From a virus: a stretch of DNA of 39,096 nucleotides. The stretch is taken from positions 1 to 39,096 of the IMG/VR virus record IMGVR_UViG_3300035556_000082; one strand, given 5' to 3'. The number at the start of each line of letters is the position of its first letter. The first letter of the stretch is position 1. The notes below the pieces were generated by a model. That model saw only the letters and a list, made by a program, of their open reading frames with translations. It ran no database searches and was not told the origin of the DNA. This document shows positions 1 to 27,906 of the stretch, piece by piece. A program made the position numbers and the translations under genes.

Positions 1-3000
1 CCCCCTCCGGATGACGAAGATCCGAAAAAGCCGCCCCCGCCGCCGCCACCCACTCCGGCGAGCGCATCCTCCAGCCGGGCCGCCGCCGCGTCTACTCGCG
101 AAAAGAAATTCGAGCCCGCCGAGTACACATCAGATCGGAATTTCGACGATACCGCAAACCCCTGCTCCCGGAACGCCGTCCCGGCGTCGGATATCTGGCC
201 TCTCAGGGTGGTCGAGGTCGTGACGAGATAGTCCCCGGCCTGGCGGCCCGACGCCACGAAGGCAGTTCCTGCGGCCCGGATAGCCTCGGCCGCCTCTCTT
301 CCTTTAAGGTTTACGGTAGCCTCTATTTCTGACTCGGCCCCGTCCCCTATGGTGGGAATGATCGGCATCTCGACCGCCGTCTCGAACGCGGAATCGCTCA
401 GGACGGGGACCACCGAAATTTCGAGAGGCTCATCAGCCGAGAACCCCGACTCCTCGATCAGTCGAGTTTTGGCGTCCTCGTCTATCTTCCATTGTGCATA
501 CAGTTCTACTGCATATTCGACCTGACCGGGCCGGTACTGATCAGGATTCGCCAGGATCTCCTCGAAATACTTTTTCGAGTTCATGATCCCGGAGGGCTGG
601 AACATCTGATTTTTGGGGTCCTCCTGCCACTTCGCGAAGTCTGACATGGCCCCGCAAGCGCACGCAAGAGACGCATCTACCTGCTCCCCCCAGTTCTTGA
701 TCTCCTTCTTAGATTTCCCTACTTCGTCCGTTATCGATTTGTAGTAGTCTGCTATCCCCCGAATGGAGCTCAGGGGAATATCGGTGTATAGGTGGAGAAG
801 GTTGATGGCCTCCTCCACCACCTGATTTTCATGTTTCCCGGCATTCGTCACGATATCGAAGGCCCGGGCCAGATCTCCCTGGTATTCGGTCGCAGTCTCG
901 ACCGCATAATGCAGATCTACCAGGTCATCCCGATACTTCCACAGCCCTATCTCAGCATCAGATCCTCCCCAGTCTTCCCAGAGGAGGGCCTCTCGGAAGG
1001 CCGAGACTTCGGGGGAGACCCCCACGTCCAGCTTCCCCCTCACATATACCGTATTCGCGGGGTCATTCAGATGCTGAGACAGATCCTCCAGAGCATCCTT
1101 ATACTCGATCGTCCCCAGCTGTCCGGCGGCTTCCAGAGCAGCCAACGTCTCCAGCTTCTCTTTCGCGCCCTCCCAGAACGCTACGGCCCCATCTCCCCCT
1201 AGCTCGGTGTATCTCTCTGGATCGAATACCTTGAGCCGCGAATATTCGGCCACCATCTCGGCGGCTTCGGTCCCGGATATCCAGCCGTCCGAGAAGGCTT
1301 TAGCGCCCGTCTTTCCCAGGTCCTCCATCGCCGTCTTCATGTCGCCGACGAATGCGCCCCCGCCCATCGCCTCCTGGAACGCTGATTCATAGGCGGCCTG
1401 GATCTCGGCTATCTGAGCCTGGGTCGGGGCGAGCTCCTCGGCGAACAGATCCCATGCAGACTTCCCGCCCGCTAGCTCCGCCTTGAGCTGGACGACGACG
1501 GCATCGTCGTCGAAGTATGTGGAGCTCCGGGCCGTCCTCATCGCCACGTCGAGCTGCCGAGGATCCATCGCAGCGTAGACCATCGGATACTCCGTCCGGA
1601 GCCACTCCTCGGCCGCTGCATACGATCCGAAGCCCTTCTGGACATTCCCCACCGATAGGAGGTACGGAGATCCCTTACTCTTGTTGTAGCCGAAGACGAT
1701 ATCCGATCCCCCGGCCGAGAACATTTCGCCGTATCTATAGCCCGATTGCTCTCTCCCCGAGTACTGGTTCCACATCTCCAGGGCTGCGAGGTCCCCCGAC
1801 GCCCCCAGGGCATACATCGACGCGATCTCCCTGGAGACTCCCGCTTTCGTCATCTCGGCGACGGCATCCCCAAAAGCTTTCCCGACCTTCTCCCCGGCGC
1901 CTTTCCCATCGACGGATTCTAGACCGGCCTGGACGCCTTCGGCGACCTCCGGGGCCGCCGCCTCGCCCATCTCCTCTCCTAGCTTGGCCCCGTACTCGAT
2001 GCCGAGCTTTTCGTCCAGCCAGCCAGTCAGCCGCCCGATAGCGCCTTTGGTTTCGGCTCCCTCGTCATCGACGCCACCGTAAAGCCACTTCCAGCCCTTC
2101 GCCCCCAGATCCATGAGTGCCTGAGTGATGCCGTTGATGTCCCCCATCATGTCGGTGAGAAACGGAAGAAGAACTGTCCCTATACTGGTAGCGGCAACAG
2201 ATATCTTCCCCTTAAAAATTTCTATCTGAGCATTTAGAGTTTCCTGCGATTTGGCGTAGGCTTCGTTAAGGCTGGAAGCGTTTTCCCACGCACCCGCGCC
2301 CGTTGCCAGGGCCGCATTGAGGCCCTCGATTTCCTTTGTGACCGGGTCGACCTTACCAACCAGCATCCCCATCATCTGGCCGCCAGTGGCTCCAAACTTC
2401 TGAAGAGCCTGCCCCTGTTCATCGATGGGCAATTCTGATATGGCAACGGCAAGCTCCTGGATGGTTCCGATGGCGTCCTCTCGGATGGCTTCCTGGAATT
2501 CGGTTGTGTCCATATCCAACATGGACGAGATGCCGCCCTTGTCATCCCTCATCATGTAATTGAGGGAATCACGTAAGGACTCGCCTGACGTCTCGGCGGT
2601 CATGCCGAACGCCTGAAGCTGGCCGACGAGAGCCGCCCACGCTGATAGCTGGCTTGGATCGGGCTTCAGCATCGCCATCTGAGCCGATACCTTTTTCATG
2701 CCGGTGACGATCGACTCTTCGGACGTAGCCATCGAGTCGGCGAGATCGTTGATGGTGGAGCCCATTCTGTTGCCGAACTCAGTCCATGACATCTCAGCGG
2801 GCTTGACGACCGACCCGATTTTCCCAATGGAATCACTTGCAGCATCCGCAGACATCCCCCACGCCGACGACATTTTCAAAACGACATTAGTATAATCGGC
2901 GATCTCGGACGCATCTATCCCCATCCGCCCGGCCCCGGCCGCTGCCCCGGTTATGTCGGCCATCGACGCGCCAGTTTCGCCTCGGATGGCGAGAAGTTCT

Positions 3001-25003: not shown

Positions 25004-25018
25004 ACGGCGTTGCCTCCC

Positions 25019-25156
25019 TCACGCGCCCCCGTCCCTCATCGCCTCGGCGAGATCCAGCACCCTTTCAAGACAGTCGCCGATGGTATCGCTTGCATCTCCG
25101 AACTTTACCAGCCGGTCCTTATCTTTAATCCGGACTCGGATCATAGTTGTCTCCAT
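25019..25156 (-). CDS. Small RHH/CopG-like regulator (45 aa)
   Basis: Manual translation METTMIRVRIKDKDRLVKFGDASDTIGDCLERVLDLAEAMRDGGA; TATA about 25 nt upstream. Confidence 0.65.
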   Translation of the reverse strand: METTMIRVRIKDKDRLVKFGDASDTIGDCLERVLDLAEAMRDGGA

Positions 25157-25179
25157 GCTAGATAGCAATGCGCGTATTG

Positions 25180-25195
25180 CTTATAAAGATAACGG
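25180..25195 (-). promoter_or_regulatory. Promoter of the replication operon (CCGTTATC-TTTATAAG)
   Basis: TATA box about 25 nt before the ATG at 25156; the CCGTTATCT motif also precedes the TATA at 27901-27915. Confidence 0.6.
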
Positions 25196-25214
25196 CACAA
25201 AAGCCGCTACTTAT

Positions 25215-26459
25215 AGGAATGGGGTGCGGAGAGGGGCGTAAAACCCCGGTCTTTAGGCCGGGGATGTAGAGCCCCTCCCTTGTTTATGCGAACCTTTAAA
25301 TAGCATTAAGCCGTATAAACTGATATGCGCAAGTCGTTCAAGTACCGGATCTATCCAACTAAATCCCAGAGATCAAGGATGGAGCGGACGCTCGACTTGT
25401 GCCGATGGGTCTACAACCAAACCCTAGCATACCGGAAAGACGCTTGGGAGATAGAAGGGCGATCAACCTCGAAATACGAGACCCATAACCTTCTCCCCGG
25501 ATGGAAGGTAGAGAAGCCCGAACTGATAGAAGTCCACTCCCAAGTTCTCCAAAACGTTCAAGAGCGGGTGGAGTTGGCTTTTAAAGCGTTCTTCAGACGG
25601 GTCAGATCTGGCGAGAAACCTGGATATCCGAGGTTCAAAGGGAAAGGATGGTATGATTCGTTCACCTTCCCTCAGTCGGGGTTCAAGTTGGTGTCTGGAA
25701 AGCTCCGTCTCTCCAAGATCGGCGATGTCAAGATCAAGCTCCACCGACCCATCGAAGGCAAGATCAAGAGGCTGACTATCCGCCGAACCTCGACCGGAAA
25801 ATGGTTTGCCTGCTTCTCAGTGGAGATCGACGATCCTCCAAAGCCTCCCTGGAAAGACGGGTCGATGGCGGGCATTGACGTGGGGCTGGAGAGTTTCGCC
25901 ACTCTGTCCAACGGTGAGAAGATCGATAACCCCCGGTTCTTCAGATCCGAGGAGAAGGCGTTGGCCAAAGCCCAAAAACGCCTATCCAAGTGCGAGAAGG
26001 GAACTCCTGAGAGGAGGAAAGCCCTTAAGGTCGTCCAACGGATTCATGAGCGGATAGCTAACAGGAGATACGATTTTGCTCATCAGATAAGCAATCAGTT
26101 AGTCTCGAAATATGGCCTGATTGCGTTTGAAGATCTGAGTATCGCGAACATGCTTAAGAACCACAACCTGGCTAAAAGCATATCAGACGCTGCCTGGAGG
26201 ATGCTAGTCACAATCACGTCGTACAAGGCTGAGAGTGCCGGTTCGATAGTGGTTCTAGTAGATCCCAGGAACACGAGTCAGCTATGTTCCAGGTGCGGTC
26301 TTAAAGTCACGAAGTCGCTATCGGATCGAGTCCATGAATGTCCTCAATGCGGGCTGGTCATGGACCGTGACGAGAATGCAGCAATAAACATTCTGAGACT
26401 GGGGCTACAGTCTCTGCCAAAAGCTAGAAGCCCCGCCCTTCAGGGCGAGGAGTAGTCAC
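25215..26459 (+). mobile_element. Non-autonomous IS200/IS605-family element (tnpB only, IS1341-type)
   Basis: Subterminal hairpins CCCCGGTC-TTTA-GGCCGGGG (25244-25263) and CCCGCCC-TTCA-GGGCG (about 26431-26446). Guide tetramers AAAA and GAAG at the hairpin feet predict cleavage sites TTAT (25211-25214) and TCAC (26456-26459), both present. Confidence 0.85.
25325..26455 (+). CDS. tnpB: RNA-guided endonuclease TnpB
   Basis: HTH_OrfB N-terminus (MRKSFKYRIYPT), RuvC I GIDVG, RuvC II FEDL, zinc ribbon CSRC/CPQC, RuvC III DRDENAA; TTTAAATA promoter at 25295-25302. Confidence 0.97.
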   Translation: MRKSFKYRIYPTKSQRSRMERTLDLCRWVYNQTLAYRKDAWEIEGRSTSKYETHNLLPGWKVEKPELIEVHSQVLQNVQERVELAFKAFFRRVRSGEKPGYPRFKGKGWYDSFTFPQSGFKLVSGKLRLSKIGDVKIKLHRPIEGKIKRLTIRRTSTGKWFACFSVEIDDPPKPPWKDGSMAGIDVGLESFATLSNGEKIDNPRFFRSEEKALAKAQKRLSKCEKGTPERRKALKVVQRIHERIANRRYDFAHQISNQLVSKYGLIAFEDLSIANMLKNHNLAKSISDAAWRMLVTITSYKAESAGSIVVLVDPRNTSQLCSRCGLKVTKSLSDRVHECPQCGLVMDRDENAAINILRLGLQSLPKARSPALQGEE

Positions 26460-26479
26460 CGCGCCATGACTCAAAAGAA
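26330..26479 (+). ncRNA. Predicted omega/reRNA of TnpB (scaffold from the element 3' end plus flanking guide)
   Basis: Inferred from established TnpB biology; the 5' boundary is approximate; guide starts at 26460. Confidence 0.5.
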
Positions 26480-26514
26480 TGAGTCACCGCGCATTCGGAA
26501 AAGCACGCGTGCAT

Positions 26515-26760
26515 TCATGATCCCAGCCGCTCCACCATCCGCCGGACCGATTCGTATTTCGGCCCCCTCGCCCAAACTATGAGACTCGCCTCCCTCCCGA
26601 CGGGCACGATAACGCCCTCGCGCCGGAGGGCCAGCATGTAGCGGTTCCCGGACTGGTTCGGCCCCGGAAGATCCCGCGCCATGAAGCTGCCTTCCGGCAT
26701 GGCGAGGATCGTTGGGCCGAGTCCGAGCGAGACGAGTTTCGCGATCCGATTCGCATTCAT
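26515..26760 (-). CDS. Putative winged-helix protein (81 aa)
   Basis: FMARDL...GNRYMLALRREGVIVPVGRE..IVWA pattern; ATGA coupling. Confidence 0.5.
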   Translation of the reverse strand: MNANRIAKLVSLGLGPTILAMPEGSFMARDLPGPNQSGNRYMLALRREGVIVPVGREASLIVWARGPKYESVRRMVERLGS

Positions 26761-27215
26761 CCCTGCTCCTCCAACCACTCGATCATCGCCCGCCGCGCCT
26801 CCCTTTCGGGATCGGCGGCCCCGGCGATCCGTATCTCCGGGATGCCTATGCTGACGGTGAACTGCATCCCCTTCTCGTGTGCGAAGAGCTCCGCCGCGCC
26901 GGTGATCTTCCCCTCGGCGGCGATCTTACCCTCCATCAGATCGAGGGCTTCTTTCAGCCCGGCGGCGTAATTCTGTTGGGCCACAAAATGATCGATAGGC
27001 ATCGCCCCGTCCAGGTCTTTCATGGCCGCGTGGTATCGGTGGCGGATATCTGCATAAGCCACCCTCGCCAGCCGTTCACGCTCGGCCGCGCCGATCAGCC
27101 GGGACACGATCTCGTCGTTGGTCACCTGCCGCCCCTCGGCAGCGGAGGCCCGGCGGCGGAGATCGGCGAGCCGTTCCAGCGTCTCGGGGGAGACATAGGG
27201 CCTCTTCGGTGCCAT
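26757..27215 (-). CDS. Hypothetical protein with RHH-like N-terminus (152 aa)
   Basis: [14 protein letters not shown]...[11 protein letters not shown]; start overlaps the upstream TGA. Confidence 0.55.
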
Positions 27216-27877
27216 CAGGGTGCCTCCCCGAACAGATATTGCCTGAGCCGTTCGGCCTGCCATTTTCGTTCAGCACCCCAGGCGGCATACCTGGCGGCAT
27301 AGGCGGCATCCCTGGCGGCATACCTGGCGGCATACCTGGCGGCATAGGCGGCATCCCTGGCGGCATCCCTGGCGGCATCCCAGGCGGCATACCTGGCGGC
27401 ATCGAGTTCGGCCTGGGATGCGTTACCTATCGCGAACCGGCGTGACACCTCGATCGCGGCGCGGGGCCGAGAATCTCCAGGATACTTGGACTCGAAAATC
27501 AAAAGAACCCGTTCCGCACAGTCGCAAGCGAACAACCGTGCAGTCCGATCGTTCCAGGTGGCCAGCTTCCGGACCAGCCGCGCCTCCGAAACCACTATCT
27601 TGTCGGGCGACTCCATCCGGTCGCCTCGCCACTCGGCTTCCCAGATCGATGGACCTAACCACGAAACCAACTGAGTCTCGCCTTCACAAAGATGGTAGCC
27701 TCGTTTACATGGCTCGATGTTCTCGATTTTCGGCATCCAGCCGCCTCTGAGGTCCCACGTACCTGACCCACCATGACATGGCGTACCGTCGTGGTTCAAA
27801 ACCTTGTATAATCTCGCCCTGGCGTCGTCGATACGCTTTTCGACGAGCCGAAGCCGCATTCCTGACTCTTTCGACAT
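27215..27877 (-). CDS. Imm5-like domain protein with AAxx repeat tail
   Basis: [28 protein letters not shown] motif; CKRGYHLC; start at 27877 fits the upstream TATA. Confidence 0.7.
27278..27402. repeat. 12/9-bp coding tandem repeat GCCGCC(A/T)GG(G/T)AT
   Basis: Encodes AAR(Y/D)/AAWD/AAY units. Confidence 0.9.
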
Positions 27878-27906
27878 AGTACTACATAGTACCATATAGT
27901 ACTTAT
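27874..27906. promoter_or_regulatory. Three 10-bp-phased A(C/T)ATAGTAC repeats overlapping the TATA and start of the leftward early operon
   Basis: ACATAGTACT-ACATAGTACC-ATATAGTACT at 27874-27903. Confidence 0.7.

Follow-up and report, generated by a model that had tools for sequence, protein, structure and literature searches.

The closest described counterparts of the locus reported here are IS200/IS605-family transposons and the TnpB nucleases that they encode. In IS608, the four bases 5' of the foot of each subterminal hairpin pair with the cleavage site (PMC3201880). TnpB, carrying a guide derived from the right end of its element, cuts the vacant site next to a TAM (PMC8612924), and this cutting restores the transposon after excision, a form of homing (bioRxiv 10.1101/2023.03.14.532601). 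A gene drive by the TnpB of IS605 has been demonstrated experimentally on multicopy plasmids, with IS-free copies being either removed or converted (PMC11870625; reviewed in PMC13565253). Intron endonucleases have also been cited for competition between co-infecting viruses (reviewed in PMC13565253). Here we describe a TnpB element carried by an archaeal virus, a natural case in which the insertion site, the target motif, the predicted guide and the probable donor host lineage can all be read from sequence. IS-free relatives of the virus have kept the target, which raises the question of whether the gene drive described for plasmid TnpB may also operate between viruses. No new mechanism is involved, as each component has its match in the published biology of IS200/IS605 and TnpB.

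The window analysed is a complete 39,096-bp IMG/VR virus record (IMGVR_UViG_3300035556_000082). Its proteins include an SU10-type major capsid protein, an SPP1-type portal, a large terminase and a D5-type primase-helicase (all by Pfam), and its nearest named relative is Caudoviricetes sp. vir515 (BK063672), for which the annotated host is Methanosarcinales. The capsid, portal and terminase genes, together with the host annotation of vir515, indicate a tailed archaeal virus. The insertion sequence (IS) lies in an intergenic position between two leftward operons and breaks no gene, in line with what an earlier note on this DNA had stated. To its left is the replication operon, which consists of a small ORF, a gene for a 197-aa protein and the D5-type primase-helicase gene (D5_N match). 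A putative TATA box for this operon can be read on the minus strand at positions 25181-25188, 27 nt from the left end of the IS, and the replication-operon side, up to approximately position 25195, is conserved in three IS-free viral contigs (L059, L060, and L061). To the right of the IS is a viral intergenic block (26460-26519) that is identical at 60/60 positions in L060 and at 59/60 positions in a fourth IS-free contig, L058. This block contains a hairpin (26461-26492; the fold z-score for the block hairpin is -3.95) and is located just beyond the stop codon of a minus-strand ORF (26515-26778), for which the hairpin may serve as a terminator. The DNA flanking the block diverges on both sides in the relatives compared (L058 and L060), and the block thus appears to behave as a recombination boundary between gene modules that is common to these relatives. 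We considered vir515 (L002) as an empty-site control and rejected it, as the interval corresponding to window positions 25062-26806 is replaced there (L002 3999-6220) by a DNA methyltransferase gene and other small genes. The stretch that separates the two leftward operons is a hypervariable cargo site.

The insertion is a non-autonomous, tnpB-only (IS1341-like) element of the IS200/IS605 family, which spans positions 25215-26459 on the plus strand. Its ends were placed using the breakpoints of similarity against other copies of the element and against IS-free relatives. On the right, most of the closer copies lose blastn similarity to the window at 26459 (±1), and the last 60 nt of about 40 independent copies can be aligned up to ...AG(T/C/A)(A/G)(G/T)TCAC, beyond which the sequences are unrelated in every case. 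On the left, approximately 20 host copies share a TTAT at the end of their otherwise unrelated flanks, immediately before the A with which the IS begins. Elements with the same ends occur at unrelated sites, with dozens of them in Methanotrichaceae genomes, all with different flanks. The IS-free relatives resume similarity to the window exactly at 26460, with TTAT preceding, and L061 matches window positions 25017-25214 at 97.5% identity, stopping exactly at TTAT. The right side of the IS-free relatives and the left side of L061 therefore fix both junctions to the base, and the ends of the IS coincide exactly with the breaks in similarity to these relatives. No target-site duplication is found in the flanks. 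The copy boundaries, together with the pairing of guides and flanks described below, define an element of 1245 bp inserted without duplication. A five-nucleotide motif, TTATA, was rejected even though all close copies read TTATA, because the IS-free relatives read TTAT followed directly by CGCGCC; the motif is thus TTAT, and the A is the first base of the IS. We also rejected a second TCAC (26486-26489) as the true right end, as positions 26460-26519 are viral and are present in IS-free relatives.

Both subterminal hairpins are on the same strand, and terminal inverted repeats are absent. The left hairpin (CCCCGGTC-TTTA-GGCCGGGG; 25244-25263, plus strand), which was identified by folding of single-stranded DNA, is conserved across copies and is directly preceded by the tetramer AAAA (25240-25243). 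The right-end hairpin (26431-26450, plus strand) is directly preceded by GAAG (26427-26430), and the last bases of the element are TCAC (26456-26459). The earlier note had applied the IS608 rule to these tetramers, matching AAAA to the TTAT at 25211-25214 and GAAG to the terminal TCAC. Our comparison bears this out, as the tetramers are in place and in variant copies the left tetramer changes together with the flank: L076 has the guide AACG with the flank TTAC, and both L009 and L080 have AGAG with CTAC, in each case as the IS608 rule predicts. An autonomous host element, L154, pairs CAAA with TGAT. The element thus resembles IS608 of Helicobacter pylori, the model for single-strand 'peel and paste' transposition, in having top-strand subterminal hairpins with tetramers that pair with the cleavage sites, and in being inserted 3' of a tetranucleotide with no duplication left behind. 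It differs in its cleavage sites (TTAT and TCAC, compared to TTAC and TCAA in IS608) and in the spacing of its hairpin feet from the cleavage sites (29 nt on the left and 5 nt on the right, compared to 19 nt and 10 nt in IS608). It also differs in that the viral element does not encode a transposase. No ORF for a Y1 (HuH) transposase, TnpA, was found inside 25215-26459 in the ORF list or by Pfam search. The element is therefore classed as non-autonomous, a point that the earlier note did not stress, and it relies on the host for both excision and re-insertion.

The tnpB gene (25325-26455, plus strand) encodes a protein of 376 aa which is predicted, from its Pfam and PDB matches, to be an RNA-guided RuvC nuclease. 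The protein matches the Pfam families OrfB_IS605 (2.7e-27), Cas12f1-like TNB zinc ribbon (3.4e-24) and HTH_OrfB_IS605 (8e-17), and residues 2-361 align to the TnpB of ISDra2 from Deinococcus radiodurans (PDB 8BF8, 8EXA, and 8H1J; E 7e-69). Counted along this alignment, the RuvC residues D185, E269, and D349 fall on D191, E278, and D361 of ISDra2 TnpB, and C321, C324, C339, and C342 fall on its zinc-finger cysteines. The three RuvC residues are therefore intact, as had been claimed from the sequence of this element by itself. The same is true of the claimed TATA promoter: the box TTTAAATA (25295-25302, plus strand) is part of a conserved block in the alignment of left ends, and probably functions as the promoter of tnpB. 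It is approximately 26 nt before the ATG, which suggests that the tnpB mRNA is probably leaderless. Comparison of the viral tnpB with intact host copies gave dN/dS values of 0.08 to 0.12, which points to purifying selection on this tnpB lineage. ISDra2 is similar to the viral element in several respects. TnpB aligns over its full length, with the RuvC D-E-D triad and the zinc finger. In both elements the right end encodes the guide RNA (a prediction for the viral element) and closes with a short conserved motif immediately ahead of the guide, and the target motif is the left cleavage site of the transposase. Unlike ISDra2, the viral element has the motif TTAT rather than TTGAT, has no tnpA, belongs to an archaeal host and a viral carrier, and has an archaeal TATA promoter in front of tnpB.

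The right end of the element (26395-26459, plus strand) is predicted to form the 3' part of an omega-RNA scaffold, and is made up of a stem, the GAAG tetramer, the right-end hairpin and the terminal TCAC. The 7-bp stem (26395-26401/26408-26414) has compensatory changes in six of its seven pairs, although it is within coding sequence. The right-end hairpin is kept in 42/42 copies, which represent 33 different sequences. These covarying stems within the last 65 nt fit an omega-RNA scaffold; the right-end hairpin also serves TnpA on single-stranded DNA. A search of the right end against Rfam returned no matching family. A further pairing proposed by RNAalifold (alignment columns 17-22 with 195-200) was not relied on, as it showed one-sided changes only and involves conserved codons. 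The hairpin in the window has one C-A mismatch that is absent from the consensus, and owing to the same base change, the C-terminus of TnpB reads GEE where the consensus has GGE. Downstream of this scaffold, the predicted guide is CGCGCCATGACTCAAAAGAA, taken from the right flank (26460-26479, plus strand); it equals the target in IS-free relatives. The guide would thus read CGCGCCAUGACUCAAAAG..., and the predicted TAM would be TTAT (25211-25214), the tetranucleotide that also flanks the approximately 20 host copies aligned at their left ends. The only copy of the target in the virus itself is preceded by TCAC rather than TTAT, and the occupied site is therefore self-protected.

We searched viral contigs for exact matches to TTAT joined to the initial 18 nt of the right flank. 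Four IS-free viral contigs hold TTAT and the guide-matching sequence: L058, L059 (= L004), L060, and L061. L060 reads ...CACATTTAT|CGCGCCATGACTCAAAAGAATG..., with all of the 60 bases that correspond to window positions 26460-26519 identical. The other three (L058, L059/L004, and L061) have one mismatch, a G instead of a T at guide position 12, and in each of them TTAT precedes the target. None of the four encodes TnpB (0/4). The earlier note had proposed that the guide should target IS-free copies of this virus, just upstream of the promoter of the replication operon. The first part of this proposal finds support in the TTAT and guide match of the four related contigs, but the location does not, as three of the four targets are not beside the replication promoter. 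The targets in L060 and L061 are 2.1-2.3 kb from this promoter, behind another gene module. A 2.3-kb module of rightward genes separates the left TTAT of L061 from its TTAT|CGCGCC site, and relative to this contig the IS stands in place of that module. L060 has approximately 2.1 kb of other DNA on the left of its target, while the differing stretch in L059 is just 32 nt long. L061 (13109-13170) contains tandem repeats of the target motif, as CGCGCCATGACGCAAAAGAT, CGCGTCATGACGCAAAAGAT and then shorter CGCG(C/T)CA units, with TTAT preceding the first copy only. These repeats look like iterons or protein-binding repeats at a module boundary.

The empty site that had been predicted by joining the two flanks of the IS (GCTACTTAT|CGCGCC...) was not found as such in the viral or metagenome collections. 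In viral contigs, TTAT plus the right flank was found in the four relatives above, in each case next to a left flank unlike that of the window. Among viral contigs other than the window, the left flank GCTACTTAT was found in L061 only, where there is no IS; its nine matches in metagenome contigs lie in unrelated DNA and are due to chance. An unsampled relative with a short spacer, a deletion between two TTAT sites, or recombination could account for the left side. A search of viral contigs, which are thinly sampled and from which close neighbours of the window may be missing, for the right-end junction did not identify a second virus with the same insertion, and there is thus no sign of spread of the element among the relatives in this set.

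Traces of the same IS family are present in two further places in related contigs. L060 has a solo 21-nt right-end scar (L060:7286-7306; TTCAGGGCGGGGAGTAGTCAC) that is identical to the right end of the element in the window at 20 of 21 positions and equals the family consensus. It is beside the promoter of the replication operon, 2.1 kb from the intact TTAT and target. In L161, the right-end hairpin and the terminus are complete and inverted (approximately 1862-1890, minus strand), 19 nt from the conserved viral block. In this contig the arm that matches the guide of the window has been replaced, and L161 is therefore without a target. The scars suggest that the region has been visited repeatedly by this IS family. 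They also show that elements decay here, and the copy in the window could likewise be a relic which is no longer mobile or usable and which will erode to a scar as in the relatives. The lack of tnpA and the C-A mismatch, which weakens the right-end hairpin, agree with such decay. However, the ORF is complete with all catalytic residues, both ends of the element are complete, and single stem mismatches are likewise found in several intact host copies. We regard such a relic as very unlikely.

To place the viral element among its relatives, TnpB loci were scanned in one genome per prokaryote species, which returned more than 500 related loci. The best 80 of these are mostly from Methanotrichaceae. 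The closest TnpBs, with 83-90% protein identity, are from Methanocrinis and Methanothrix harundinacea, with several copies per genome. In a midpoint-rooted maximum-likelihood tree, from which eight loci with internal stops were left out, the viral TnpB falls within a clade of eight rows that otherwise comprises Methanocrinis and M. harundinacea genomes only (support 100/99). Its sister is a Methanocrinis copy (99/96), and the best identity is 90%. The element is thus probably of host origin. The nesting of the viral TnpB within a host clade suggests transfer from host to virus, with Methanocrinis as the likely host, and the element probably moved into the virus from a host of the Methanocrinis lineage. 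Through this TnpB-only element, an uncultured virus can be tied to hosts of the genus Methanocrinis. DNA identity to the nearest host copy is no more than 86-87%, which indicates either that the donor genome is unsampled or that the insertion is old.

Two observations concern the wider distribution of the family. L076, on a contig binned as Desulfomonile, is nearly identical to Methanothrix copies, which suggests mis-binning of the contig. Three loci from Chloroflexota bins (L117, L119, and L127) are close relatives of the archaeal TnpB family and form their own clade, which suggests transfer between domains.

Although the viral element has no transposase of its own, a source in trans may be available in the hosts. 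Three of the four host genomes searched encode a Y1 TnpA, in some cases beside TnpBs that are 43-64% identical, and two host elements (L152 and L154) have a left-end hairpin that is identical to that of the window at 20 of 21 positions. Mobilisation in trans by a host TnpA is therefore plausible. We consider it likely that a non-autonomous IS of a host family was placed in the virus by host TnpA acting in trans, and that its TnpB would cut the unoccupied allele made up of TTAT and the target. Under this model, a host Y1 TnpA most likely inserted the element by single-strand 'peel and paste' transposition, 3' of TTAT at an intergenic module boundary. The tnpB gene would then be transcribed from its own TATA box, and the 3' end of the transcript, with approximately 16-20 nt of the right flank, would yield the omega-RNA. 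The complex of TnpB and this RNA would cut the unoccupied allele, in which CGCGCCATGACTCAAAAG comes after TTAT. With TCAC standing where TTAT was, the occupied allele would be immune, and cutting after excision by TnpA would restore the element. In mixed infections, IS-free relatives would be cut, and either the element would be copied into them by recombination or they would be removed from the pool.

The same element could also be a passive passenger that landed by chance via host TnpA in a harmless intergenic spot, with a TnpB that serves only its own retention and has no effect of one virus on another. Such insertions are evidently common, as the IS is multicopy in hosts and related TnpBs are found on 49 other viral contigs. 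The intergenic position of the insertion and the single virus in which it was found also agree with this explanation. On the other hand, tnpB is intact and its lineage appears to be under purifying selection. Relatives with cleavable targets also exist, so that an effect on them would follow if TnpB were expressed during co-infection. We therefore view a purely passive role as possible but rather unlikely, and favour the model in which TnpB would cut the unoccupied allele.

That the element might home, or act as a gene drive, between relatives in the same infection is a reasonable extension of this model, being the standard expectation for TnpB carried over to a virus, and the same applies to competition. 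Such behaviour would parallel the homing described for TnpB (Meers et al. 2023) and the drive of IS605 on multicopy plasmids (Mears et al. 2025, PMC11870625), in that the guide matches the IS-free sister allele and the occupied allele is protected. It differs from those cases in that the replicon is viral, the sister alleles belong to diverged natural relatives rather than to identical copies, and the system is known here from sequence. There is also a likeness to the free-standing and intron homing endonucleases of phages, which are selfish nucleases at exchange boundaries that are able to cut the allele without them. Recognition here would be RNA-guided and rewritten at each insertion, in contrast to the protein-encoded recognition of those enzymes.

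The outcome of cutting would depend on the DNA that surrounds the target. This DNA differs strongly between the relatives, with similarity restricted to the 60-nt block on the right, and with left sides that are different or are interrupted by 2.1-2.3 kb. Such flanks would be poor templates for repair by recombination, and for most of the sampled relatives the short similarity would favour killing over conversion. It could be argued from this that the virus retains TnpB as a means of destroying IS-free competitors, with little or no copying of the element, for which the use of intron endonucleases in competition between co-infecting viruses provides a precedent (PMC13565253). However, the element resembles any host copy and has no virus-specific change, and a single IS-bearing genome is known. 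Retention for this purpose seems to us improbable, and cutting of the unoccupied allele by an element placed through host TnpA is the model that we retain.

A broader form of this model, in which the element acts between co-infecting archaeal viruses as a natural RNA-guided gene drive, with the breaks made by TnpB aiding the shuffling of modules at this site, is tentative and on present evidence unlikely. In its favour are the exact coincidence of both IS ends with the breaks in similarity, the position of the IS where L061 has its 2.3-kb module, the scars in two relatives and the cleavable targets in four. The insertion is at a boundary where gene modules differ between relatives, and any contribution of breaks made by TnpB to module exchange is speculation.

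Beyond the module boundary to the right of the IS, the virus encodes a 226-aa protein (27215-27895, minus strand) that matches an Imm5-like immunity protein (3e-11) and DUF7666. An immunity-protein-like domain is thus present in an archaeal virus.
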